From: Gemmatimonadota bacterium
GTDB taxonomy: Bacteria; Gemmatimonadota; Gemmatimonadetes; Gemmatimonadales; GWC2-71-9
DNA length: 64,000 bases
Reading direction: 5' to 3'
Assembly (NCBI GenBank): GCA_039588255.1
Contig: JBDHAF010000007.1
Location: 38,137 to 102,136, forward strand
Part shown: piece after piece, positions 7,160 through 34,387 of the stretch
How the letters are laid out: each line of letters begins with the position of its first letter
Numbering within the stretch: position 1 is the first letter of the stretch
Program-made: the position numbers and the translations under genes
Notes under the pieces: model-generated
What the model was told of the DNA's origin: nothing
Databases searched by the model: none
Seen by the model: only the letters and a program-made list of their open reading frames with translations

Positions 7160-8388
7160 GACTCTGCGAACCGCGTGAGGGAAAGGAAGGGATCTACGTC
7201 CGCTTCGGCGACGACGCGCTGGGCAACGTACTCACCCACCACGGGACCGAGCTTGAAGCCGTGCCCCGAGCCGCCACCAACCAGCCACACGTCCTTCCCT
7301 TCAGGGTGCCGGTCGATGACGAAGTGGCCGTCCGGCGTGTTGGCGTACTGACAGACCCGCGCCTCCAGCATCGGCGCGCCGGCGAGCGCCGGGAAACGGC
7401 GCTCGATATACTGTTGCGCTCGCCGCAGCCCCTCGGGGGTCGGCGACCGGTCGGCGGTGGTGGGGTCGAGTTTCGCCCCTCGTGTATCATCCCCGATCTT
7501 GAACCCGCGCGAGGACGTCGCCGGGAAGCCGTAGTACATCGGCTCGTCGAAATCGATCCACACGGGAAGACGACCCTCATCGAAGCGGGCGTCGCCGGCG
7601 GGCGTGCCCATGTAATAAACTTCTTGGCGCGTCGAGACGATTACGTCTCCCATCACGTCGGGAAAGAGATCCGCGAGCCACGGCCCACAGGCGAACACAA
7701 CGCGGTCGGCGTCGAGCGACGTTCCGTCGGCCAACGTGACGCCTGCCGACGCGCACTGCTGCGCGACGTCAGCGTCGACCCGAACCGTCTGTTGCAGGTA
7801 CGTTCCGCCCTCCGCAACGAAGCGGTCCCGCACCATCCCGCACGCCGTTGCGGCGTACAAGAACCCCGCTTCGTGCTCGACCAGGGCCCACTCGACACCG
7901 TCGAAGTTGATTTGGGGAAATCGTGCGGCCGCCGCTGCCACATCCAGCTCGTCGAACGGCAGCCCGCACTCCGTGAGGTACGGGAGTGACGCGCGCACGT
8001 AGCGATCGTCGTCACCCACCATCCACAGCACGCCGGTTCGACGAAAGAGGGAGCTGCCCTCCTCTGCCTCGAACGCGCGCCACATCTGCAGGGCCCTCGC
8101 CGTCCACGCCACGTAGGCCCCATCACTTCCGTAGACACCACGCATCGCCCGGGTCACTCCGCCCGAGCTGGCACGGGCGTTCGCCGGTCCCCACGCGTCC
8201 ACCAGAGTGACGTCCGCACCTGCCCGGAGCAGGTGGAGGGCGGTCCAGCCGCCGAAGGCGCCCGCCCCGACGACCACCACCCGCAGCGATCGGGCCGCGG
8301 CCGGGTCGATCGCAGCATCGTCGTCGAAGGAGACGTTCGTCGGTGGTTCGGTGGTGCGGCTGGCCCACTGCGTGCGGTCGCGCGTCAA
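7156..8388 (-). CDS. FAD-dependent oxidoreductase (DAO / monomeric sarcosine-oxidase-like)
   Basis: Dinucleotide-binding motif VVVVGAGAFGG plus C-terminal GGGSGHGFKLGP. The ORF is open to 8586, but that part lies inside fdhD. I set the start at the in-frame TTG 8388, which overlaps the fdhD stop (TTGA). The start is uncertain. Confidence 0.8.
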   Translation of the reverse strand: MTRDRTQWASRTTEPPTNVSFDDDAAIDPAAARSLRVVVVGAGAFGGWTALHLLRAGADVTLVDAWGPANARASSGGVTRAMRGVYGSDGAYVAWTARALQMWRAFEAEEGSSLFRRTGVLWMVGDDDRYVRASLPYLTECGLPFDELDVAAAAARFPQINFDGVEWALVEHEAGFLYAATACGMVRDRFVAEGGTYLQQTVRVDADVAQQCASAGVTLADGTSLDADRVVFACGPWLADLFPDVMGDVIVSTRQEVYYMGTPAGDARFDEGRLPVWIDFDEPMYYGFPATSSRGFKIGDDTRGAKLDPTTADRSPTPEGLRRAQQYIERRFPALAGAPMLEARVCQYANTPDGHFVIDRHPEGKDVWLVGGGSGHGFKLGPVVGEYVAQRVVAEADVDPFLSLTRFAES

Positions 8389-9194
8389 TCGGCCAACCGG
8401 TCCTCTCCCGCATACACATTGAATCCCTCGCCGCGGGAAAACCCGACCAACAGCATGTCCGTTTCCCGGGCCAACTCCACGGCGAGTGAGGACGGGGCGG
8501 ACACTCCGACGAGTCCGCCGATGCCGGCCAGAGCCGCCTTCTGCACGACTTCGAAGCTCTGGCGTCCCGACACCGCGAGCAGGCACGGTGGCAACGGCCA
8601 GTGCAACTGAGTTGCAGCACCGATCGCCTTGTCCACGGCGTTGTGCCGACCGACGTCCTCGCGAACCGCGATCACTTCACCGTAGACGTCAAACAGACCA
8701 GCGGCGTGGAGCCCCCCCGTGACATCGAACGTCGGCTGATGGTCGCGCAACCGGTCGGTGAGGGACGCCGCTATGCTCTTCTCGATCGTCCACGACGCAA
8801 CCGGTCGCCCAAAGAGGCGCACTTGCTCGATGGAGGCCTTGCCACACACCCCGCACGAACTCGAGGCAAACATGTTGCGCTGGAACTGTGTCGCGTCCAC
8901 CTCGATCCCCTCGGCGAGCCGCACCGACAGGCGGGAGGCATCGAGGTGTTCGATGGCATGGATCTCGGTGGGGTCGAGGAGGATCCCCTCGGTGAGGCAG
9001 AAACCGCGGACGAGGTCTTCATCGTCGCCGGGCGTCCGCATCACCACGGCCAGCACCACATCGCCGAGTCGGATCTCCAGCGGTTCCTCTACCGCCACCG
9101 TGTCGTCATCCGATCCGGCGGACGCGGCCGCATGGCGCACGATCTCCACGTGGCGACTGCGCACCGACTCTTCCGTCTGCTCGGATGACTTCAT
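8385..9194 (-). CDS. fdhD: Formate dehydrogenase accessory sulfurtransferase FdhD
   Basis: 269 aa from ATG 9194 (MKSSEQTEE...). FdhD hallmarks SSCGVCGK and GRHNAVDKAIG. The ORF-track extension to 9752 is Arg/Gly-rich and overlaps another gene. Confidence 0.85.
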   Translation of the reverse strand: MKSSEQTEESVRSRHVEIVRHAAASAGSDDDTVAVEEPLEIRLGDVVLAVVMRTPGDDEDLVRGFCLTEGILLDPTEIHAIEHLDASRLSVRLAEGIEVDATQFQRNMFASSSCGVCGKASIEQVRLFGRPVASWTIEKSIAASLTDRLRDHQPTFDVTGGLHAAGLFDVYGEVIAVREDVGRHNAVDKAIGAATQLHWPLPPCLLAVSGRQSFEVVQKAALAGIGGLVGVSAPSSLAVELARETDMLLVGFSRGEGFNVYAGEDRLAD

Positions 9195-9232
9195 CGATGT
9201 AAAGTATCTCGTGGGGGTGCGTACCGCAGAGC

Positions 9233-9637
9233 CTACGTACCGGAGGTTTCCGCCATATCCGGGGATCGTCGCCGATCCTCTCCGGTCCACTCCTCCCGGG
9301 ATTGCACGGCGCTCACGAGGAGCGCGCCTCCGGACGCGATGGCACCCCCCGCCACCAAGGTCGGGACGTACAGCACCGCCATTGGGAGCGGGAGGACGAG
9401 ACCGAATAACCCGGCCAGCTGCCCCACCGGCCCCGCGGATCCCGTGAAGACCAGCAGGCCGACCCAGCCCGCCGTGGCCGCACCGGCCGTAACCCGTATG
9501 GGCTGATCCGATTTCCGCACGATAGCGGCCCAGACCGCTCCCACCACGAACACCACCCACCACCCGAAGGCGAGTGTGGCCATCGCAAACGCGACGGTGA
9601 GAACCAGGATGGCAATCGGCTGGCCTGGAGAGCGCAA
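9233..9637 (-). CDS. Hypothetical small integral membrane protein (about 4 TM segments)
   Basis: TTG start with GGAGGA 6 nt upstream. Hydrophobic segments IAILVLTVAFAMATLAFGWWVVFVVGAVWAAIV, ATAGWVGLLVF and LAGLFGLVLPLPMAVLYVPTLVAGGAIASGGALLV. No family recognised. Confidence 0.5.
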   Translation of the reverse strand: MRSPGQPIAILVLTVAFAMATLAFGWWVVFVVGAVWAAIVRKSDQPIRVTAGAATAGWVGLLVFTGSAGPVGQLAGLFGLVLPLPMAVLYVPTLVAGGAIASGGALLVSAVQSREEWTGEDRRRSPDMAETSGT

Positions 9638-9767
9638 CGCTCGTCCTCCAGTGTTCGGGCGACGGAGTCAGTTCAAGCTGAATCCTGTTGCATGGAATGC
9701 TCCGGCGCAAGAGTCTCAAGACCCCCCTTCCCCCTTGCGCTGGAGGCCACATTGAGCTTATGTATGC

Positions 9768-9787
9768 ATAATGCCTCTAGGCATTAT
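9768..9787. promoter_or_regulatory. Perfect inverted repeat ATAATGCC-TCTA-GGCATTAT, candidate operator upstream of the PadR-hybrid kinase
   Basis: 8-bp arms with a 4-bp spacer, sitting in the only AT-rich patch of the 9638-9810 intergenic region and ending 24 nt before ATG 9811. The arms extend imperfectly to 14 bp (GTATGCATAATGCC / GGCATTATTTGTAC). A related TATTATGCC overlaps the start codon. Confidence 0.35.
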
Positions 9788-9810
9788 TTGTACCTGAAAG
9801 GGCCTGTATT

Positions 9811-12513
9811 ATGCCGCCGAAGCGAAAACCGGCGTCCATGCTTCCCCTCAAGCCGGAGGTGTTCCTCACCCTCGTGATCCTTTCCGAGGGAGAGGCCCAC
9901 GGCTATCGCATGCGGAAAGAGGTGGAGCGCCGCTCCCGACAGGCCCTGCACCTCGACGCCGGCACCTTCTATCGGCTCCTCCGCCGCCTCATCGAGGACG
10001 GCCTCATCACCGAGTCCAGCCGCCGGGACCGGGAGGACGCCCGGCGGCGGTACTACCGCCTGTCGGCCCTGGGCAAGCGCGTGGTCACCGACGAGGCCAC
10101 CCGCATGGCCACCCTCGTGGCCGATGTCGGCTCCACACCCATCGGCCCGTCGACGGCGGCGGCCGCCCAACCACTCGTATCCGACGAGCAACCCACTGGC
10201 GAGCTCATGGATTCGCTTCCCGACCTCGTGTGGCAGATGGACCCCACGGGGAGGTGGACATATCTCAACGCCGCTTGCGAGAACGTGTACGGTGTGGTGG
10301 CGGCAGCCCTCGTCGGCAAGAGCTTCCTGGACCACGTGCCCCTCGACCGAAAGCCAGCAGACCAGGCGGCCTTCGACTCGGTGTTGGACGGACACGAGCT
10401 TGTGGACTACGAGACGGTCCACCTGGACCGCCACGGCTCACCCAGGGACCTGAGCTTCTCCGCTCTTCCGATCCGCGACGCCAACGGAGTCATCGTCGGT
10501 GCCCGCGGCACCGCCCGGATGGTTACCGACCGGATCCGGTCACGGGCGTCCCTGGAAGCCGAACGACGGGAAGCGGAACGTGCGTCCCAATCGAAGAGTG
10601 CTTTCCTGGCCAACATGAGCCATGAAATCCGCACGCCGATGAACGGCGTGCTGGGAATGGTCGAGCTCCTCCTCGACACCAAGTTGACCCCCGAGCAGCG
10701 CCGGTCGGCCGAGCTGGTGCGATCCTCTGCGGACTCTCTCTTGACCATCCTTAACGACATCCTCGACTTCTCGAAGATCGACGCCGGCCGCATGGAGATC
10801 GAAGACGTCCCCTTCGATCTCCATGAGCTCGCAACCAATACGGTGAGGATGTTTGCAGCGCGGACCGCGGACACCGGGGTCGAACTGGTGTGCGACGTTC
10901 CACCAGACGTGCCTCGAAAGGTCCGGGGTGACCCCGGGCGGCTTCGCCAGGTGCTGAACAACCTCGTGAGCAACGCCGTCAGATTCACCGAAAAGGGGGA
11001 GGTGACCGTCTCGGTGGACCTCAGGAGAAGGGGGCGCGCAGATGCTGCTCTCTCATTTGCCGTCCGCGACACCGGCGTGGGAATCCCCCATGATCGTCTG
11101 GACTCGATCTTCGAGGAGTTCACTCAGGCCGACGCCTCTGTGACCCGTACGCACGGGGGCACCGGCCTGGGACTGCCCATCTCGCGACGGTTGGTGCGGC
11201 TCATGGGTGGAGACCTGACCGTCACCAGCGAAGTCGGACAGGGCAGCGAGTTCCGCTTTCAGGTGAGCCTCCAAGTCGAAGCGGAGGGGGAGGCCGGCGA
11301 TAGATACGGCAACTTGGAAGAAAAACGGATCCTCGTCGTGGATGACAACCCCACCAGCCGCCGCATCGTGTTCGGCGTGTTGGCCTCCGCGCGAGCCGAC
11401 GTGCGGCAGTGCGACAACGCCGACTCGGCTCTCGCCGCCATGCTGAAGGCCGCTACCAGCGGTGCTCCCTACGACGTGGCGATCATCGACGGCTACATGC
11501 CGGGAACCGACGGGTTCGAGATGGCCGAACTCGTTCGGCGGGACCCCAACCTGGTGCGGACCCGATTGATGATGCTGACGTCCGCCGGTCAGCGGGGCGA
11601 CGGCATCCGCGCCCGAGACGCCGGCATCTCAGCCTATCTCACGAAACCCGTTTCCGATGTCGAGTTGCTGGAGATGACGGCAGCGGTGCTCGCTCGGCCT
11701 GCCGGGAGTCCGGAAGACCAAGATCTCATCACGCGCCACTCCATCAAGGAGACCCGGGAAAGGCTCACGATCCTCCTCGCCGAGGACAACCCGGTCAACC
11801 AGCAGGTCGCCACCACGATGCTCACCACCCGGGGACACACGGTGGACATAGCCGAGAACGGCCGCCTGGCGGTGGAAGCGGTCAAGGCCAAACGGTACGA
11901 TCTCGTGCTCATGGACGTACAGATGCCGGTGCTCGACGGCCTGGCCGCCACCGGCGAGATTCGCAACACGCTGGGCATGCGCGCTCTGCCCATCGTAGCC
12001 CTTACGGGCCGGGCGATGCCCTCCGAACGGGAGGAGTGCCTCCGCGCCGGGATGAACGCCGTCGTGACCAAGCCGATCAAGCCTCACGAGCTGTTCGCGG
12101 CGGTCGAAGGCTGGGCGGCCCCTTCATCCGCAGAGGCGGCGCCGGGCCCCGTCGAAACCGAGACGGTGTCGCCGTCGGTAGCGCTGGACGAGTTCTTCCA
12201 AATGATGAAGGAGGCGGGCGTCGAGGCCATGGCAGCCAATACGCTGGCGGTCTATCTCCGGGACACGCCCACCAGGATGGTGCTCCTCGAGGAGGCCACG
12301 CGCGACGCCGACCAGATACAGATCGAGGCCATCTCCCATTCCTTGAAATCGGCCTCCGGATCGATCCGGGCTGTCCCGTTGGCGGATCTGTTGGGGCAAA
12401 TGGAGGCGGCGGGCAAATCGGGAGACATCGAACGCAGCCGGGAGCTCTTGAAGGACATTCAAAAGGAGTACGCGGCCGTACAGGCGGCGTTGAAGGCTGT
12501 CGTCGAGGGATAG
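9811..12513 (+). CDS. Soluble hybrid sensor histidine kinase with N-terminal PadR-type winged-helix domain (PadR-PAS-HisKA-HATPase-REC-REC-HPt)
   Basis: PadR-like LKPEVFLTLVILSEGEAHGYRMRKEV...GTFYRLLRRLIEDGLI...RRRYYRLSALGKRVV. H-box MSHEIRTPMNG (His codon 10621-10623). HATPase DTGVGIP...GGTGLGLPISRRLV. Receiver Asp codons at 11488 (IIDGYMPGTDG) and 11914 (LMDVQMPVLDG). HPt ISHSLKSASGSI (His codon 12337). No TM segment. Confidence 0.9.
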   Translation: MPPKRKPASMLPLKPEVFLTLVILSEGEAHGYRMRKEVERRSRQALHLDAGTFYRLLRRLIEDGLITESSRRDREDARRRYYRLSALGKRVVTDEATRMATLVADVGSTPIGPSTAAAAQPLVSDEQPTGELMDSLPDLVWQMDPTGRWTYLNAACENVYGVVAAALVGKSFLDHVPLDRKPADQAAFDSVLDGHELVDYETVHLDRHGSPRDLSFSALPIRDANGVIVGARGTARMVTDRIRSRASLEAERREAERASQSKSAFLANMSHEIRTPMNGVLGMVELLLDTKLTPEQRRSAELVRSSADSLLTILNDILDFSKIDAGRMEIEDVPFDLHELATNTVRMFAARTADTGVELVCDVPPDVPRKVRGDPGRLRQVLNNLVSNAVRFTEKGEVTVSVDLRRRGRADAALSFAVRDTGVGIPHDRLDSIFEEFTQADASVTRTHGGTGLGLPISRRLVRLMGGDLTVTSEVGQGSEFRFQVSLQVEAEGEAGDRYGNLEEKRILVVDDNPTSRRIVFGVLASARADVRQCDNADSALAAMLKAATSGAPYDVAIIDGYMPGTDGFEMAELVRRDPNLVRTRLMMLTSAGQRGDGIRARDAGISAYLTKPVSDVELLEMTAAVLARPAGSPEDQDLITRHSIKETRERLTILLAEDNPVNQQVATTMLTTRGHTVDIAENGRLAVEAVKAKRYDLVLMDVQMPVLDGLAATGEIRNTLGMRALPIVALTGRAMPSEREECLRAGMNAVVTKPIKPHELFAAVEGWAAPSSAEAAPGPVETETVSPSVALDEFFQMMKEAGVEAMAANTLAVYLRDTPTRMVLLEEATRDADQIQIEAISHSLKSASGSIRAVPLADLLGQMEAAGKSGDIERSRELLKDIQKEYAAVQAALKAVVEG

Positions 12514-12604
12514 CTCACCGCGCTCACGTTCCCCCATGGGCCACCGGAGCTTATATTTGCTGCCAGATGGCCATTCGCTTTCACACCGACGGGCAGCGCC
12601 GCCG

Positions 12605-15073
12605 ATGAGCGAGTGTAGCAGCTGCGGCTCCAGCGTGCCCACCGACGCGCAGTTCTGCACCCAGTGCGGAACGGCGGTTTCTGGTGATCCCACTAACGCA
12701 GCCACTCAGCACTCCTCCAGCCGGAGTACCAAGTCCCAAGACCAGCTCCTCGAGGCGCTGCGCGAGGCAACGCTCGGCGAATACGAGGTCCTGACGGAGC
12801 TGGGTCGCGGCGGGATGGCCGTCGTCTACCTGGCGGAAGACCTGGCGCTCGGTCGCAAGGTGGCCATCAAGGTCATGTCGCCGGAGCTGCGACTCATGGG
12901 TGAGCAGGTCGTGGAGCGGTTCAACCGGGAAGCCAAGACGGCCGCCAAGCTCTCTCACCCCCACATCATTCCCATCTACGCGGTCCAGGAACGCAACGAC
13001 CTGACCTTCTTCGTCATGAAGTTCATTCAGGGACGGTCCCTCGAGCACGTGATGCGGGAGGAGGACCGGCTCCCGGCGGCCGTGGTCCAGACCATCCTGT
13101 CCCAGGTCGGGAGCGCCCTCGACTACGCCGACCGGAACGGTGTCATTCACCGCGACGTGAAGCCGGGCAACATCATGCTGGACGAAGAGGGATGGGCGGT
13201 GGTGACCGACTTCGGCATCGCCAAGGCGGTGGAGGCGGACGGTCTCACCATGACTGGTGCAGCCCTCGGCACCCCGTCGTACATGAGCCCGGAACAGTGT
13301 GCAGGGTTGGGCATCACGGGCGCGGCGGACCAGTACTCCCTCGGGGTGCTGGCCTTCGAGATGCTGAGCGGTGAGCTCCCCTTCGAAGGCGAATCGGCGA
13401 TGACGGTCATGTATCGCCACACTCATGAACCACCACCGCCCATCACCGACGTCTGGCCGGACTGCCCACCCGACCTCGCTGAGGCCGTGATGCGCATGCT
13501 GGCCAAAAAGCCGGAAGACCGCTGGCCGTCGGTAGCGGAAGCCATCGGCGCAATCGCCGCGGTCCAGCCGGTGAACGACAGCGCAGTCCGCACGCAGATG
13601 GTGACGATGGTGAAGCGGGCCAGCAACCAGAGCCTGTTGGCCCAGTTCCACACACCCCGGACACCCATCACCGCGGGCATGGGACGGTCCCGGGCCCGTG
13701 CCATTGGATCCGCTTCGGGGCAAGTCACGCCGGACACTGCCGCGGTGGCCGTGGCGCCTCCTCCGGCGGAGGGCGGAAAGCGCCGCAGCCTTGCCTGGCT
13801 CGTGGCGGTGCCCCTCGTCGGCGTGGCAGCGGCTGCGGGCTGGTTCCTGCGGCCGACGGCCACGACCATCGAACCAACCCCGGCAGCACCCCAAGTCGCC
13901 GAACCCCCACCGGCGAGCGCGACCCCTGCGTCGATGGTTACCTCACTGGCGGTCGAGCCCGGCACCGCCGCGCTGACCGTGGGGCAGGCACAATCCCTCA
14001 CCGCCATACCGCGGGATTCGTTCGGTGCCGCGCTCGCAACCGCCGCCGTGGAGTGGACCTCCAGCAACACCGGCGTCGCCAGCGTGTCGCCGGAGGGGAT
14101 CGTTACCGCCAGGGCCGCGGGGTTCGCCCAGCTGACGGCGCGGGTCTCCGGCCATTCCGCCACCGTGGGCATCACCGTCAACGCGCCGCCGCGCACCCAA
14201 CCGGCGGCTCCCGCCGCAGTCGCATCGGTCGGTGTGTCACCTTCTTCACCGACGCTTTCGGTTGGACAGGACGTGCGACTGCAAGCGACACCGTTGGACG
14301 CCGCGGGGACTGCGTTGGCCAATCGGGCGGCAACATGGAGCACGAGCGACGAGAGTGTTGCAGCGGTTTCCGCTGCGGGACTCGTGACGGGAGGCCGGGC
14401 GGGCAGCGCGGAGATCACCGTGACCATCGGCGGTCGGTCCGCCACAGCGGCGGTGCGCGTCACGGCGATTCCAGTGGCTTCGGTGCGGATTACGCCCAGC
14501 AGTCGCAGCATTCAGTCCGGTGAGACGCTCCGCTTGACCGCCGTGACTCTCTCTGCCGACGGAGCCGAGCTCCCGGGACGAGCGATCTCCTGGAGTACGT
14601 CGAGCGACATCTTCCTGGTGTCGTCGGCGGGCGTCGTCACGGGAGTCGCCGCCGGAACGGCCACGGTGACCGCCACCAGCGAATCGCGCACGGCGACTGC
14701 GACGATCACGGTGACCGCACCGCCCACGCCCGAAACGCCGGCACCCGACCCCGCCCGCGATCGCCAACAGATCGAGGCCGCATTGCAGGCATACGCCCGC
14801 GCCGTGGAATCGCGCGACCTCGACGAGTTGCGGCGAGTCTACCCCGGTCTGACCCGACAGCAGGCAGACGCGTGGCGCGGTTTCTTCGACAGCGTCAACG
14901 ATCTCAGCTTCACGCTCACCACTACCTCGGTCGAAACCGACGGCGACACGGCTACTACTGCCGTGGACGCGCTCCAGGAGTTTCGCACCAACCGGCAGGA
15001 GCGCCGAAGCTTCACATTCCGCGCCACCCTCGAGCGGACCGCGAACGGGTGGCGCATCACACGAATCCAATAA
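12605..15073 (+). CDS. Membrane Ser/Thr protein kinase: N-terminal zinc ribbon, Hanks kinase domain, one TM segment, three Big_2 Ig-like repeats, C-terminal NTF2/SnoaL-like domain
   Basis: CSSCGSSVPTDAQFCTQCG. Kinase motifs GRGGMAVVYLA, VAIKV, HRDVKPGNIML, DFGIAK, GTPSYMSPE. TM segment LAWLVAVPLVGVAAAAGWFL. Three ~80-aa repeats (VEPGTAALTVGQAQSLTA..., VSPSSPTLSVGQDVRLQA..., ITPSSRSIQSGETLRLTA...). Tail IEAALQAYARAVESRDLDELRRVYP...NGWRITRIQ. An alternative ATG lies at 12536. Confidence 0.85.
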   Translation: MSECSSCGSSVPTDAQFCTQCGTAVSGDPTNAATQHSSSRSTKSQDQLLEALREATLGEYEVLTELGRGGMAVVYLAEDLALGRKVAIKVMSPELRLMGEQVVERFNREAKTAAKLSHPHIIPIYAVQERNDLTFFVMKFIQGRSLEHVMREEDRLPAAVVQTILSQVGSALDYADRNGVIHRDVKPGNIMLDEEGWAVVTDFGIAKAVEADGLTMTGAALGTPSYMSPEQCAGLGITGAADQYSLGVLAFEMLSGELPFEGESAMTVMYRHTHEPPPPITDVWPDCPPDLAEAVMRMLAKKPEDRWPSVAEAIGAIAAVQPVNDSAVRTQMVTMVKRASNQSLLAQFHTPRTPITAGMGRSRARAIGSASGQVTPDTAAVAVAPPPAEGGKRRSLAWLVAVPLVGVAAAAGWFLRPTATTIEPTPAAPQVAEPPPASATPASMVTSLAVEPGTAALTVGQAQSLTAIPRDSFGAALATAAVEWTSSNTGVASVSPEGIVTARAAGFAQLTARVSGHSATVGITVNAPPRTQPAAPAAVASVGVSPSSPTLSVGQDVRLQATPLDAAGTALANRAATWSTSDESVAAVSAAGLVTGGRAGSAEITVTIGGRSATAAVRVTAIPVASVRITPSSRSIQSGETLRLTAVTLSADGAELPGRAISWSTSSDIFLVSSAGVVTGVAAGTATVTATSESRTATATITVTAPPTPETPAPDPARDRQQIEAALQAYARAVESRDLDELRRVYPGLTRQQADAWRGFFDSVNDLSFTLTTTSVETDGDTATTAVDALQEFRTNRQERRSFTFRATLERTANGWRITRIQ

Positions 15074-21322: not shown

Positions 21323-21969
21323 ATGAAACCCCGTGCCCCGGGTTTCCTGGCCTGGCGTTCCTCATCATGGCATGCAGCACTTCCCAGGCGACAACCTTGC
21401 CGTCTCCTACTCCAACACGGGCGGACCGCCAAAGGTCCGATCAGCAAGAGGGCCCCAAGCGTGGCAGCGACACGCTCCCCATCTACCAGTCAGCGCAAAT
21501 CAATAACTTTGCACTAATCATCGCCGCGTTCGACGTGGAGACCATCGGTCCGGACAGCAACACCGTCGTCATCGACGTGACGAGCCTGTTCGAGACCGAC
21601 GTCCCGGCCATCAGCGGCTTGCGCCGCCAGCAGCGGACCAGCTTTGGAGTGCGGCGGCTCGATCCCAACCGCACATTTCTCGATCGCGCAAGCAGCTACC
21701 CGCTGAACGTCGATGTGCGACACAGCCTCACGTTCGAGGCCACGCAGCCACCCTCCGACGCCAATACGGGCGACTTCAGTCCCGAGGACGTGCGGTACTC
21801 TACGGTCCGTTACGTGGCCAACATGACCCGCAATGCCGTTGGGCCGAGCGTGTCGGATCCCCGCTCCGGATCGGCGCAGGCCCCATTGTGCGCTGCGGCA
21901 CAGCACCGCCCCCGTCGACCTGCCAGGTTGTGCCCCAACAGGGCTCGGATGCATCTTAATGTGAGGTGA
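21323..21969 (+). pseudogene. Remnant of a lipoprotein zinc metalloprotease (DUF5117/DUF5118-type), frameshifted, internally deleted and 3'-truncated
   Basis: ATG 21323 gives MKPRAPGFLA. It then needs a frame change to continue as LAFLIMACSTSQ (lipobox). Further on, TLPIYQSAQINNFALIIAAFDVETIGPDSNTVVIDVTSLFETDVPAISG...RRLDPNRTFLDRASSYPLNVDVRHSLTFEATQPP resembles, from memory, an internal block of ~800-aa DUF5117 metalloproteases. The catalytic part is absent. Confidence 0.4.
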
Positions 21970-21975
21970 ACGATC

Positions 21976-22140
21976 GTGAACACCAAACTCTTCTCGGTAT
22001 TTGGGGCGTCTGTCGGCGGGACGATCGGCGGCCTGGCGGGGGTCCAAATCGGGTTGATGACCGGCTTTTTTTCATCCGTTTTCGGTATCGGACTCGGCCT
22101 CTACCTCACCCGCCGTTTCGTGCGCGCGTACTTGGAGTGA
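21976..22140 (+). CDS. Small glycine-zipper membrane protein (54 aa), absent from the supplied ORF track
   Basis: GTG 21976 lies 7 nt after GAGGTG (21963-21968). Translation: (M)NTKLFSVFGASVGGTIGGLAGVQIGLMTGFFSSVFGIGLGLYLTRRFVRAYLE*. Stop TGA 22138-22140 overlaps the response-regulator GTG 22137 (GTGA). Confidence 0.5.
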   Translation: MNTKLFSVFGASVGGTIGGLAGVQIGLMTGFFSSVFGIGLGLYLTRRFVRAYLE

Positions 22141-22769
22141 CGGGAGACACGACCGTGAAGATCCTCATCGCCGAAGACGATCCGGTCTCCGCAACTCTGC
22201 TCAAGACGTTGCTGACCCAATGGACCTACGAAGTGGTCGTCACCGAAAACGGCGATGACGCCCTGGGCATCCTCACGACCGAGGACGGTCCTTCCCTAGC
22301 CATCCTGGACTGGATGATGCCGGGCTTGAACGGCGCTGAGGTCTGTCGAGCGGTGCGAGGCGCCTCGCTCTCTCGCCCGGTATATCTCATCCTGCTCACC
22401 CGGTTGGGGAAGCGGGAGAACATCGTGGAGGGGCTGGAGTCGGGCGCGGACGACTACCTGGCAAAACCCTTTGACGCCGCCGAGCTCCGGGCCCGCGTGC
22501 AGGCGGGTCTCAGAGTGGTCAAGCTGGAGAGAGAGCTGCATCATCGTGTTCGCGAGCTGGAGGAAGCCCTGTCTAACGTCAAGCAGCTCCAGGGTCTGCT
22601 GCCGATCTGCAGCTACTGCAAGAAGATTCGTGACGATCAAGATTATTGGCACCAAGTCGAAAGCTACGTGGGGCAGCACTCCCAAGTGGAATTCAGTCAC
22701 AGCATATGCCCGTCGTGTTTCGATACGGTCATGAAGCCTCAGTTAGACGATCAGGCGGACAAGAAGTAG
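22137..22769 (+). CDS. Response regulator: receiver domain + coiled coil + C-terminal Cys4 (CxxC...CxxC) module
   Basis: KILIAEDDPVSATLL...LAILDWMMPGLNGAEV...LTRLGKRENIVEGLESGADDYLAKP (REC). Tail LPICSYCKKIRDDQDYWHQVESYVGQHSQVEFSHSICPSCFD. Start is GTG 22137 (coupled) or GTG 22155 (after GGGAGA). The ORF-track start 21966 is upstream junk. Confidence 0.85.
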   Translation: MTGDTTVKILIAEDDPVSATLLKTLLTQWTYEVVVTENGDDALGILTTEDGPSLAILDWMMPGLNGAEVCRAVRGASLSRPVYLILLTRLGKRENIVEGLESGADDYLAKPFDAAELRARVQAGLRVVKLERELHHRVRELEEALSNVKQLQGLLPICSYCKKIRDDQDYWHQVESYVGQHSQVEFSHSICPSCFDTVMKPQLDDQADKK

Positions 22770-25120: not shown

Positions 25121-25459
25121 ATGCCCAAAGGCGACTTCCTGGGAGCGTTCGAAGAAATCGTGCTGCTGGCGTTGGTCCACCTCGGCGAGGACGCCTACGG
25201 CATGACGATCCGTCGCGAGATCGAAGAACGCGCCGGACGAGCGGTTTCGATCGGAGCGGTCTACTCGACCCTCGACCGGCTCCAGGCGAAGGGTTTCGTC
25301 TCCTCCCAATACGCCAACGGCTCCGAGGCGAGACGGGGCCGGGCGAGGCGGTATTTCAAGCTCGAGCCCGAAGGGGCCAAGAGTCTCGAGCGTTCCAAAG
25401 AGATCCTCGCCAACATGCGCCGCGGCCTCGAGCCCGAGTCGGAGCTCACCAAGTCATGA
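25121..25459 (+). CDS. PadR family transcriptional regulator
   Basis: FEEIVLLALVHLGEDAYGMTIRREIEERAGRAVSIGAVYSTLDRLQAKGFV...RRYFKLEPEGAKSL. The stop overlaps the permease start (ATGA 25456-25459), which is the known PadR + ADOP permease pairing. Confidence 0.9.
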   Translation: MPKGDFLGAFEEIVLLALVHLGEDAYGMTIRREIEERAGRAVSIGAVYSTLDRLQAKGFVSSQYANGSEARRGRARRYFKLEPEGAKSLERSKEILANMRRGLEPESELTKS

Positions 25460-28092
25460 GCCCGCGTACAGACCGGCACGCCGCGCCGCGGCTGCCCGAG
25501 TTGCTCCTCAACCTCTGCCTGGGTCCGGAGGAGCGGTTCGCCCTCACAGGCGACCTGAACGAGGAGTACGTGCTCTTCGTCCGTCCCAGCCGCGGGAAGC
25601 TCCGGGCGAACCTCTGGTACTGGAAGCAAACCCTCACTTCGCTGTGGCCCAGCCTCAGCAGACGGATGCGGCACCGGCCGTCGCGCCGTCCCAAACGCCC
25701 ACGACGGATTGGAGAGGTGATGTTCCACGGAATGTGGCAGGACATTCGGTTTGCGGCGCGGTCACTGCGCAAGCGCTTGGGTTTCACGACGCTCGCTGTG
25801 GCCACCCTCGCCCTCGGCATCGGCACCAACATCGCGATCTTCAGCACGCTGAATCCGTTTCTGTTCCGGTCGTTGCCCTTCGAGTATCCCGATCGCCTGG
25901 TGCACCTCTTCGGCGTCATCGAGGACTGGGAGGGGTTCGGCGGCGACATGGCCCGCTTCGGGCACGCGGATTTTGCCGACATCCAGTCCGAGGCCACGTC
26001 GTACGAGGAGCTGGGAGCCTACGTCTACGGCATCACCAACCTGACGGGCGGCGACGAGCCGCAGCACGTGACCGCCGGTTACGTCACCGACAACATGTTC
26101 AACATCCTCGGCGTCCGGGCCGCGATCGGTCGGGGAATCGTGCCTGGGAATGCCAGGGAAGACAGTGAGCGTGTGGTGGTGTTGAGCGACGGACTGTGGA
26201 GGCGCAGCTTCGGCGCCGATCCCGACATCGTCGGAAAGGCCGTCTCGATCAACAAGAACATGTACACCGTCACCGGCGTGATGCCGGCCGGGTTCAACTT
26301 CCCGTACGGCGGCGTGCGGATGTGGATCCCCTACCGAATAGACCGAAATGCCGAGCGGGGGGAGGGCAACCTGCTCGGGGTGGGCCGCCTGAAGCCGGGT
26401 GTCTCCATCGAGACAGCCCACGCCGAAATCAGCACAATCGCCAACCGGCTCAAGTCCGCATATCCCGAGACACACGAGAACAAGGGGATGCGGGTCGTTG
26501 CGTTGCGTGAGGGTCTCATATTCCTCTTCGACCTAGTGCGCCTTGCGTTCCTGGCTCTTGGTGCGGCGGTGGGACTGGTGTTGTTGATCGGATGCGCCAA
26601 CGTGGCCAACCTGGTACTCGCGTGGGGCACGGCCCGGGAGCGGGAGATCGCAGTGCGCACGGCCATGGGGGCCAGCCGGGCACGCATCGTACGCCAACTC
26701 CTCACCGAGAACACGCTGTTGGCCCTCATCGCCGGCGTGCTCGGCACCGCGATTGCGATTTTGGCCGTGCGGCCCATCGCCGCCGCCATGCCCGGCGATC
26801 TCTGGCGCGCGGGAGAGATCACCGTGGACGGGGCGGCGCTGGCGTTTGCTCTGATCGCTTCGGTGGGAACCGTCCTGATCTTCGGTCTCGTACCGGCGTT
26901 CCAGACCACGCGCACCAACATCACCAACGCCTTGAAGGAAGGCGGACGGTCGGGCAGCGAAAGCGCCCGGGGACGCCGTCTGAGCAACCTGCTGGTCGTC
27001 GGCGAGATGAGCATGGCCATGTTCCTGTTGATCGGTGCCGCGCTGCTCATCAAGAGCGTCGGCAACATGACCGACATGGACATAGGACTGGAGCCGGAGA
27101 ACGTCTTGACCGCGGAGGTAACGCTGCCTCGGGCGGATTACCAAAATGATTCAGACGTCCTCACGTTCTTGACGAACACCCTCGAGCAGCTCTCTGCGAC
27201 GTCCACCGTCTCGAGTGCTGCAGCGGTGTACCCGCTGCCCATGAACTTCGAGACCATGGGCATGGGCTTCACCATCGACGCCCTTGGCGAAGAGGCGGAC
27301 GACGCCCGTCTCGCCAGCGGGCATTGGGCAACGCCGGATTACTTCCGGACCATGCGCATTCCCCTCCTGGCGGGCCGGGGCTTCACCACGCAAGACACGG
27401 AGGGCACGCCCACCGTCGTCGCCGTCAACAAAGCCCTGGCGGAGCGTTACTGGCCCGGCGAAGATCCCGTCAGCCGGCGGATCACCCTCCACGACCCGCC
27501 CGCCGAGCCCACACCTGCGACGGTGGTCGGCGTGGTCGGCGACGTGATTCAAGGTGGGCTGTACGATCAGGTAGGTCCCCAGATCTACTTGCCGCTGCTC
27601 CAAGATCCGTCTCGTGGCTTTTACCTCGCCCTGGCCACCGGGGCCGACCCGTTGGACGCCGTATCCACCTTGCGGGGCGTCGTGTGGGGGGCCGACCCGA
27701 CCCTGCCGATCTCGGCAATCCGCTCGCTGCTCGCCGGCGGGGCGTTGATCCTCGCGGCCGGGGGCATCTACGGCGTGATCGCGTACTCTGTGAGCCGACG
27801 CATTCACGAGTTCGGCATCCGCACCGCGCTGGGCGCATCCGAGCACCACGTAATCCGCCAGGTCGTCGGTCAGGGAGCCCGGTTGACCCTGATTGGCGTG
27901 GGAATCGGCGTGGCGTTGGCGTTCGCCAGCACCCGGTTACTCAACAACTTGCTCTTCGGAATCGCCCCGGCCGACGTCGCGACGTTCATCGGAATTCCGC
28001 TGTCCCTCGCAGCCGTGGCCTTGCTGGCAAGCTACATTCCGGCGCGCCGGGCCACCCGGGTCGATCCCATGGAGGCATTGCGAATGGAGTGA
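25456..28092 (+). CDS. ADOP-type duplicated FtsX/MacB-like ABC permease with N-terminal prefix domain
   Basis: Prefix ...GDLNEEYVLFVRPSRGKLRANLWYWKQTL. Two MacB_PCD/FtsX units (LRKRLGFTTLAVATLALGIGTNIAIFS...; ...EIAVRTAMGASRARIVRQLL...; ...EFGIRTALGASEHHVIRQVV...ARRATRVDPMEALRME*). Confidence 0.85.
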   Translation: MSPRTDRHAAPRLPELLLNLCLGPEERFALTGDLNEEYVLFVRPSRGKLRANLWYWKQTLTSLWPSLSRRMRHRPSRRPKRPRRIGEVMFHGMWQDIRFAARSLRKRLGFTTLAVATLALGIGTNIAIFSTLNPFLFRSLPFEYPDRLVHLFGVIEDWEGFGGDMARFGHADFADIQSEATSYEELGAYVYGITNLTGGDEPQHVTAGYVTDNMFNILGVRAAIGRGIVPGNAREDSERVVVLSDGLWRRSFGADPDIVGKAVSINKNMYTVTGVMPAGFNFPYGGVRMWIPYRIDRNAERGEGNLLGVGRLKPGVSIETAHAEISTIANRLKSAYPETHENKGMRVVALREGLIFLFDLVRLAFLALGAAVGLVLLIGCANVANLVLAWGTAREREIAVRTAMGASRARIVRQLLTENTLLALIAGVLGTAIAILAVRPIAAAMPGDLWRAGEITVDGAALAFALIASVGTVLIFGLVPAFQTTRTNITNALKEGGRSGSESARGRRLSNLLVVGEMSMAMFLLIGAALLIKSVGNMTDMDIGLEPENVLTAEVTLPRADYQNDSDVLTFLTNTLEQLSATSTVSSAAAVYPLPMNFETMGMGFTIDALGEEADDARLASGHWATPDYFRTMRIPLLAGRGFTTQDTEGTPTVVAVNKALAERYWPGEDPVSRRITLHDPPAEPTPATVVGVVGDVIQGGLYDQVGPQIYLPLLQDPSRGFYLALATGADPLDAVSTLRGVVWGADPTLPISAIRSLLAGGALILAAGGIYGVIAYSVSRRIHEFGIRTALGASEHHVIRQVVGQGARLTLIGVGIGVALAFASTRLLNNLLFGIAPADVATFIGIPLSLAAVALLASYIPARRATRVDPMEALRME

Positions 28093-33199: not shown

Positions 33200-34387
33200 A
33201 TGAACGATCAGAAGGACCGATTCATCCCTCTCAGGGCCGACGCAGGCCCTCAGGACCTAGAGGATGCCCTCCGGCATCTCCACAAGGCCGTCGAGACCAT
33301 GCAGCTCGGCGTGACGATTACCGATATCAACGGCAAGATCGTCTATTCGAACTCGGCCGATGCCAGGATGCACGGGTATACGGTCGAGGAGCTGATCGGC
33401 AAGGACGTCAGCGTGTTCTGTATGCCGGGCTACCGGCGGTCGCTGCACCCAGCCCAGCTTCGAAGCATGAAGAGTTGGCGCAGGGAAAGCATGAACGTGC
33501 GGAAGGACGGTACCCTCTTGCCCGTGTCGCTCATGTCGGACGTCGTGCTGGACGCCGAGGACAAACCGATCGGCGTGGTGACGACCTGTGAAGACCTCAC
33601 CAACGTGAAGTTGGCCGAGGCCGAGCGGGAGCGTCTCCAGATTCAGGTGCAACAGTCCCGCAAGCTGGAAAGCCTCGCCGTGCTCGCCAGCGGCGTGGCC
33701 CACGACTTCAACAATCTCCTGTCGGTCATCTCGGCAAACGCGAGCCTCATCTTGAGCGAGCTTCCGGCGGAAGCGTCTCCCGTCCTCAATAAGGTCCTCG
33801 GGATGCAAAACGCCGCCCTTCGGATGTCAGAGCTGACCGGTCAGCTCCTGGCGTATTCCGGGCAGGGCCAGCGCAAGACGGTTACCGTCGATTTCAATGA
33901 CGTCGTGAAGGAGCTGGTCCACTTCATCGAGGTGTCCAAGGCGAGTCACGTCACGCTGCGCTACGACTTGTCAGAGAACATCCCGACCGTGACGGCCGAT
34001 CCCGTCCAACTCCAACAAGTCATTCGCCACCTCATCACCAACGCCTCCGAAGCCGTCGGTGACGAAGGTGGGGTCGTCACGATCCGCACCGGCTCGAAAT
34101 GGCTGGACCGGGATTACCTCGCCACGACTTTTTTGGGAGACGACGCGCCTCAGGGGAACTACGTGTTTCTCGAGGTGGTGGACACCGGTGTGGGGATGGA
34201 CCCCGAGACGAAGGCCAAGATCTTCGACCCCTTCTTCACCACGAAGTTCACCGGCCGCGGCCTGGGTTTGGCCGCCGTGATCGGGATCGTACGCAGCCAC
34301 GGGGGAGTCATCCGCATCGATTCCGCCACGCACCAAGGCACCTGCATCACGACCTTCTTCCCAGAAGATCGGCCCGCACAAGACTGA
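33200..34387 (+). CDS. Cytoplasmic PAS-domain sensor histidine kinase
   Basis: PAS MQLGVTITDINGKIVYSNSADARMHGYTVEELIGK. H-box LASGVAHDFNNLLSVI. HATPase DTGVGMDPETKAKIFDPFFTTKFTGRGLGLAAVIGIV. No TM segment. Confidence 0.85.
   Translation: MNDQKDRFIPLRADAGPQDLEDALRHLHKAVETMQLGVTITDINGKIVYSNSADARMHGYTVEELIGKDVSVFCMPGYRRSLHPAQLRSMKSWRRESMNVRKDGTLLPVSLMSDVVLDAEDKPIGVVTTCEDLTNVKLAEAERERLQIQVQQSRKLESLAVLASGVAHDFNNLLSVISANASLILSELPAEASPVLNKVLGMQNAALRMSELTGQLLAYSGQGQRKTVTVDFNDVVKELVHFIEVSKASHVTLRYDLSENIPTVTADPVQLQQVIRHLITNASEAVGDEGGVVTIRTGSKWLDRDYLATTFLGDDAPQGNYVFLEVVDTGVGMDPETKAKIFDPFFTTKFTGRGLGLAAVIGIVRSHGGVIRIDSATHQGTCITTFFPEDRPAQD

Follow-up and report, generated by a model that had tools for sequence, protein, structure and literature searches.

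What does a DNA-binding module do at the front of a complete histidine kinase? As a rule, histidine kinases have no contact with DNA and leave transcription to response regulators. The question is raised by a 64,000-nucleotide stretch of a Gemmatimonadota contig (JBDHAF010000007.1; hereinafter the window), in which an uninterrupted open reading frame (ORF) of 900 codons plus stop (9811-12513, + strand, ATG start) is identified by domain matches and orthologues as the gene of a PadR-hybrid histidine kinase. The original prediction, made from the sequence alone, had proposed that one polypeptide joins a PadR winged helix to a complete hybrid kinase and that an inverted repeat marks its own promoter. 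Pfam matches and catalytic residues agree with the first proposal, and the protein as the member of a conserved family with a cognate candidate operator is well supported. The parts, a subfamily-2 PadR (PadR-s2) module and an unorthodox hybrid kinase, are ordinary; the combination is not.

A PadR module joined to a hybrid kinase

Pfam matches, all above their gathering cut-offs, give the domain order PadR, PAS, HisKA, HATPase, REC, REC and Hpt, the order read earlier from the letters alone. The N-terminal ~100 residues, described then as a PadR-type winged helix-turn-helix (wHTH), match PF03551 at aa 21-92 (E 4.9e-15, 55.7 bits against a cut-off of 27), and the module as a whole covers aa 11-108 (9841-10134, + strand, as are all the domains below). 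A flexible linker rich in Pro, Ala, Ser and Gly (aa 109-131, 10135-10203), delimited by its variability among orthologues and its low predicted local distance difference test (pLDDT) scores, leads to a PAS sensor domain at aa 132-242 (10204-10536), where a PAS_4 match spans aa 134-242 (E 2.3e-14) and pLDDT is ~90 in a full-length AlphaFold2 (AF2) model. The kinase core (10594-11271) consists of HisKA (aa 262-326, with His271 of the H-box at nt 10621) and HATPase_c (aa 373-487). Two Response_reg stretches follow, receiver 1 at 11329-11685 with Asp560 at nt 11488 and receiver 2 at 11767-12114 with Asp702 at nt 11914, and the protein closes with an Hpt domain at 12244-12489 (match at aa 812-893, E 9.2e-10, 39.1 bits against a cut-off of 24.6) that carries His843 (nt 12337) in a conserved HSLKSASGSI motif.

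The catalytic residues are intact, as the original prediction had held for the H-box, both receiver aspartates and the Hpt motif. None of His271, Asp560, Asp702 and His843 varies among 12 orthologues. Conserved H, N, G1, F and G2 boxes give the protein the HisKA and HATPase_c features of a hybrid kinase, and both receivers are complete, with the acidic pocket (DD), the phospho-acceptor Asp, the Thr and the Lys all conserved. Autophosphorylation and His-Asp-His phosphotransfer mark this class of kinase, and the protein may share them. No transmembrane (TM) segment is present in the protein (maximum Kyte-Doolittle 19-residue mean 1.26), in line with its earlier description as soluble.

The ATG at 9811 is favoured over a start at Met10 (9838) because the orthologues, one of which (P0274) has a GTG start, preserve the N-terminal MPPKRKPAS tail at the protein level. 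The identical protein appears as an 891-aa JGI gene call that begins at Met10 (P0272) and as a 900-aa NCBI member (P0390). A conserved internal start that would yield a PadR-less kinase was also considered and rejected, Met133 being Ile, Val or Leu in the orthologues.

With the whole protein as query, 12 full-length orthologue clusters were recovered (879-930 aa, 56-100% identity), every one of which carries PF03551 together with PAS, HisKA, HATPase, REC and Hpt. The clusters come from different samples and assemblers, two lie on long contigs, one of 3.13 Mb, listed as ERZ26167216 ctg495773, and one of 2.17 Mb, and the named orthologues are Gemmatimonadota metagenome-assembled genomes, several of them from NCBI; one 90% cluster has 33 members. 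A misassembly or sequencing error merging separate padR and kinase genes, a worry raised in the original prediction, would have to have produced the same continuous ORF in at least 12 clusters. Nothing in the comparative data supports such an artefact, and the linker, which differs in length among orthologues, stays in frame in each of them, with the PadR module fused to a ~790-aa kinase throughout, unlike the small stand-alone regulators of ~110 aa. Because the fusion is conserved in independent assemblies, we regard the chance that it is an artefact as negligible.

At 560-737 of L004, a low-coverage contig (cov 1.7), a frame no longer follows the family after ~aa 110 and runs out into an A-rich tail, for which an error of sequencing or assembly is the probable cause, not an unfused PadR. 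Searches with residues 1-260 were less informative: among the contig matches listed there was just an unrelated PAS match (L001), which says nothing about distribution in species genomes, and the search of representatives was swamped by multi-PAS proteins, so that the single protein aligned across both domains (P0007) is no census of fusions.

The next-best matches, at 56% identity or below, are Gemmatimonadota kinases of 1000-1150 aa that share the HK-REC-REC-Hpt tail (kinase cores 45-56% identical) and have a multi-TM region and an extra PAS at the place of the PadR module, an arrangement indicating that in one branch of this local kinase family the PadR module replaced a membrane sensor. 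At the nearest PadR-less paralogue locus (L024-L026) no padR gene lies nearby, a result silent on how the fusion arose. The HisKA-HATPase-REC(-REC)-Hpt core is likewise that of the unorthodox and hybrid kinases BarA, TorS and ArcB, although the NCBIfam equivalog scores (462, 456 and 370 bits, respectively) fall far below the cut-offs of 890, 676 and 838. Unlike these kinases and the TM-PAS-PAS paralogues, the fused protein has no membrane or periplasmic sensor, and PadR stands in place of the TM region and first PAS.

The PadR module itself is well preserved. Mean pairwise identity among the 12 orthologues is 0.73 for the PadR wHTH, 0.74 for HATPase, 0.75 for REC1 and 0.62 for PAS; equal in conservation to HATPase and REC1 and above PAS, the wHTH is therefore under purifying selection. 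In the PadR family the hot spots of DNA binding are a Tyr at the start of α2, a Tyr at the start of α3 and a basic residue in the wing (PMC5728393). Their equivalents here, Y32, Y54 and R78-R80, which were matched to those residues by position in the model rather than by structural superposition, are invariant in the 12 orthologues. An AF2 model of the module (94-sequence alignment, pLDDT 84.7) has helices at 15-25, 31-41 and 50-62, a wing at 66-68/81-84 and a long C-terminal helix at 86-108, so that the modelled topology is that of subfamily 2, a wHTH with a single C-terminal dimerisation helix. Foldseek places LmrR, Rv3488 and other PadR-s2 structures as the best neighbours in the PDB, where the sequence also matches LmrR at E 3e-9. 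Judged by sequence and model together, the module looks functional.

In its wHTH, its single C-terminal helix and its Tyr, Tyr and basic residues the module resembles the PadR-s2 autorepressors LmrR of Lactococcus lactis, bcPadR1, cdPadR1 and Rv3488, and it differs from these stand-alone proteins of ~110 aa in forming the N-terminus of a 900-aa kinase. It differs from LmrR also in the pore: the α4 Trp that serves drug binding there (PMC5050560) is missing from helix 86-108. The nearest sequence relatives of the module are stand-alone PadR proteins of 118-124 aa from Acidobacteria (~40-46% identity), and a stand-alone PadR termed closest, P0003, reaches 60%. The best NCBIfam match is TIGR03433, the PadR proteins paired with ADOP/MacB-type permeases in Acidobacteria and Gemmatimonadota; the module scores 62.9, below the cut-off of 101.8, the residues H16, W17, H19, W49 and P50 that are nearly invariant in that family are substituted, and, unlike in TIGR03433-type PadR, no permease follows.

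A conserved palindrome ahead of the gene

The original prediction had described a perfect 8-4-8 inverted repeat at 9768-9787. The position and the perfection hold; the geometry is better given as 9-2-9, ATAATGCCT-CT-AGGCATTAT, a 20-bp candidate operator (no strand assigned) singled out by its complementary arms, uniqueness and conservation. The arms ATAATGCCT and AGGCATTAT are 100% complementary, and 23 nt separate the site from the ATG. It lies, as had been noted, in an AT-rich patch, with a GC content of 0.39 over 9750-9810 compared with 0.647 in the window overall. The window has no second copy at up to 3 mismatches, and shuffles gave none. Perfect inverted repeats of such size number five in the window against a shuffle mean of 2.4; because they are not rare, the case for function, and the proof that this repeat did not arise by chance, rests on conservation.

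That conservation was assessed in 12 non-redundant loci aligned on the palindrome (the window, L002, L004-L010, L017, L021 and L023). Mean pairwise identity is 0.91 over the 20 bp, compared with 0.40 and 0.30 in the flanking 20 nt on either side and 0.34 farther upstream, and the ATG follows after 21-33 nt in every one of the 12. Each locus has one such palindrome within 10 kb on either side at up to 4 mismatches. The site keeps its place, 22-23 nt before the kinase gene, also in L004 and L007, where the small membrane protein and FdhD usually present upstream give way to a padR-permease pair. An exact 19-mer search of the metagenome collection gave 10 matches: three in GC-rich contigs, all ahead of orthologues, and seven in AT-rich contigs that are unrelated. 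Conservation in the 12 loci agrees with what would be expected of the gene's own operator, and on comparative sequence grounds the palindrome can be read as a phylogenetic footprint tied to the PadR-kinase gene. Its core, ATGCC-N4-GGCAT, differs from the motifs reported for PadR-s2 autorepressors, which also have a palindrome in the regulator's own promoter (PMC4534193, PMC5050560, PMC5728393). The sole other match to this core in the window, ATGCCCTCCGGCAT at 33264-33277, has GC-rich flanks unlike those of the candidate operator and is probably due to chance.

The two most divergent orthologues (56% identity; L008 and L009) have an altered right arm, AGACATCA (GACATCA), with the left arm unaltered, leaving 7 of 9 pairs and no compensating change. 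In these two the recognition helix changes as well, from LLRRL to LINRL. The parallel change of operator arm and recognition helix is merely suggestive of covariation because it is confined to a single lineage.

Promoter elements can be proposed around the site. A putative -35-like element, TTGCGC (9735-9740, + strand), is followed after 17 nt by a putative -10-like element, TTATGT (9758-9763, + strand). Comparable hexamers recur: a TTG(C/T)NN hexamer lies 27-28 nt upstream of the candidate operator in most of the 12 loci, and at orthologous loci a TA-rich hexamer (TATATA, TTATAT or TATTAT) ends 4-5 nt before the palindrome, spaced 17 ± 1 nt from the TTG hexamer. If these elements are the promoter, the left arm would contain the transcription start, and transcription would be blocked by a dimer on the palindrome.

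A second inverted repeat, CTCCGGCGCAAG / CTTGCGCTGGAG, occupies 9700-9711 and 9734-9745, its right arm overlapping the putative -35 element. The pair (G)CGCAAG / (C)TTGCG recurs in L010, L002 and L006; L023 has the left arm only, and L004 and L007, which have another gene upstream, are without it. This repeat may belong to a divergent promoter.

What the PadR module may do

LmrR, cdPadR1 and other PadR-s2 proteins are known to repress themselves by binding palindromes in the promoters of their own genes (PMC4534193, PMC5050560). By this precedent, and from the conservation described above, we think it fairly probable that the protein is a soluble dimeric hybrid kinase whose PadR module represses its own promoter and whose Hpt domain signals to a separate regulator. 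The cytoplasmic PAS domain would sense a signal, and the phosphoryl group, first on His271, would be handed to a receiver Asp (D560 or D702), next to the Hpt residue His843 and finally to a separate response regulator. Two PadR modules, paired by their own C-terminal helix (α4) and by the kinase dimer, would bind the 20-bp palindrome overlapping the start region of the promoter, and this binding would bring about negative autoregulation of kinase synthesis. Autoregulation, the likeliest function, is a plausible and fairly mundane one.

Several points weigh against this account. Repression from such a position is deduced from weak -35/-10-like elements, and a consensus sigma-70 promoter scan called none at its thresholds in the window or in L002, which makes the promoter step weak. 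Only one lineage has protein and operator altering together. The palindrome could be bound by a stand-alone PadR paralogue of the same genome. Further genomic targets are possible, sites having been sought within the 64-kb window and the 10-kb flanks.

How tightly the two halves of the protein are coupled bears on a second reading. Among orthologues the linker between PadR and PAS is 23-46 aa long with a mean pairwise identity of 0.33; it has pLDDT below 50 in both the full-length and the module AF2 models and is predicted to be disordered. By sequence and model it looks like a tether and not a signalling helix, and its disorder and its hypervariable length and sequence argue against rigid allostery between PadR and kinase; the PadR module would then act as a repressor on a tether, not as an output rigidly linked to the kinase. 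Operator occupancy, for which the original prediction had suggested control by phosphorylation or dimer state, might nevertheless be set by the PAS signal or by phosphorylation, for example through a receiver docking on PadR, in which case the protein would be a one-component repressor and a phosphorelay kinase in one and the signal would de-repress its own gene by feedback. The same evidence for PadR-operator pairing (PadR conservation, invariant residues, palindrome) applies here, two-component genes are commonly autoregulated, and two receivers are present where a simple relay needs one. The second receiver, however, is not specific to the fusion, since the PadR-less TM paralogues have the same REC-REC-Hpt tail. 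An inhibitory contact between a receiver and a DNA-binding domain is documented in the hybrid two-component systems (HTCS) of Bacteroides (PMC11253607), and by analogy a similar docking is possible. Against it stand the hypervariable linker, with no rigid helix, and the full-length AF2 model (12 sequences; pLDDT below 50 for residues 1-129; predicted template modelling score 0.30), which has no confident interdomain contacts and is itself uninformative on these and on the PadR part. On balance such a switch seems doubtful, though it deserves to be taken seriously.

The PadR module might, alternatively, be a sensory or dimerisation input and not a DNA-binding output, with a small hydrophobic molecule as its ligand, in the manner of LmrR and PadR, or with no part beyond aiding kinase dimerisation; the palindrome would then be bound by another protein or form a hairpin in the 5' leader RNA. 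PadR proteins are indeed effector-binding sensors (PMC5728393, PMC4534193), the palindrome can fold into a hairpin (-9.1 kcal/mol), and a terminator-like scan flagged it in L002. The invariance of the DNA-contacting residues speaks against a pure input role, as does the absence from helix 86-108 of the α4 Trp of the LmrR drug pore. The right-arm changes in L008 and L009, uncompensated in the left arm, are more readily explained by an asymmetric protein operator than by an RNA hairpin under selection, an Rfam scan of the palindrome region found no credible RNA family, and there is no + strand gene upstream for a terminator to act on. We consider this alternative improbable. Autorepression by the tethered PadR module is the reading that we prefer.

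To our knowledge, among well known kinases only the Bacteroides HTCS include a DNA-binding domain as part of one chain. They qualify the statement in the original prediction that hybrid kinases normally lack such domains, since in them kinase, receiver and DNA-binding domain share a single polypeptide, as they do here (PMC11253607). The HTCS are membrane-bound, and their C-terminal AraC-type HTH, placed after the receiver, is an output controlled by phosphorylation (PMC11253607). The Gemmatimonadota protein, by contrast, is soluble, has an N-terminal PadR wHTH before the sensor, has no periplasmic sensor, TM segment or Pfam match to an AraC HTH, and ends in an Hpt domain pointing to an external partner.

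Neighbouring genes and significance

Upstream of the kinase gene, the 455-aa ORF at 8385-9752 (- strand) is over-extended, with FdhD matching only its last ~235 residues. The true divergent neighbour is a 134-aa multi-TM ORF at 9233-9637 (- strand) with no Pfam match, and a multi-TM ORF next to FdhD is conserved in L002 and L006-L010. Directly downstream, 12536-15073 (+ strand) codes for a Ser/Thr protein kinase in which an N-terminal zinc ribbon is combined with three Big_2 domains and a SnoaL-like C-terminus. The position right after the PadR-kinase gene varies, being taken by an Lhr helicase in L007 and L008 and by a methyltransferase in L006; a similar Ser/Thr kinase lies farther downstream in L007.

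A response regulator is encoded at 21966-22769 (+ strand), with its receiver at about aa 66-179 of the ORF and a Cys-rich C-terminal tail, LPICSYCKKIRDD...FSHSICPSC, without a Pfam match. In L006 and L010 a REC protein of 204-208 aa likewise follows the kinase gene at a comparable distance, near a GGDEF gene, the REC protein being conserved 6-10 kb downstream. The response regulator at 21966-22769 is a possible partner in the phosphorelay.

Farther on, at 25121-28092 (+ strand), the gene of a stand-alone PadR (112 aa) overlaps with the beginning of the gene for an 878-aa permease of the MacB_PCD/FtsX type. The conventional stand-alone PadR that the original prediction had pointed out at 25121 is thus present, and a permease follows it; the protein is 34% identical to the fused module. 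The same pair occurs in the same synteny in L010, annotated MacB_PCD/FtsX x2, and it is the acidobacterial PadR-ADOP arrangement. In L007, where a padR-permease pair adjoins the kinase gene, its padR product is 42% identical to the fused module.

No paper on a PadR-HisKA or PadR-kinase fusion was found in the literature searched, and the original prediction had likewise known of none characterised. Source annotations call the orthologues just 'response regulator', 'PAS protein' or 'PAS domain S-box-containing protein', and the present analysis corrects such database labels, 'PAS domain S-box protein' among them. What emerges is a small, well conserved Gemmatimonadota family in which a complete repressor module stands ahead of a four-step phosphorelay kinase and is matched by a conserved candidate operator, a defined protein-operator candidate pair from a poorly studied phylum. 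It offers a test case for a kinase whose abundance would be set by the kinase itself, and for the coupling of DNA binding and phosphotransfer in one chain. In a more far-reaching and tentative view, to which we give a distinctly smaller chance than even, the protein would be a chimera of one- and two-component systems, a kinase dimer on its own promoter in which DNA occupancy and phosphorelay activity affect each other. If that is true, a PAS signal or receiver phosphorylation would free the PadR module and set off a feedback burst, or DNA binding would gate kinase output, and the family would represent a DNA-tethered sensor kinase of a type so far undescribed.

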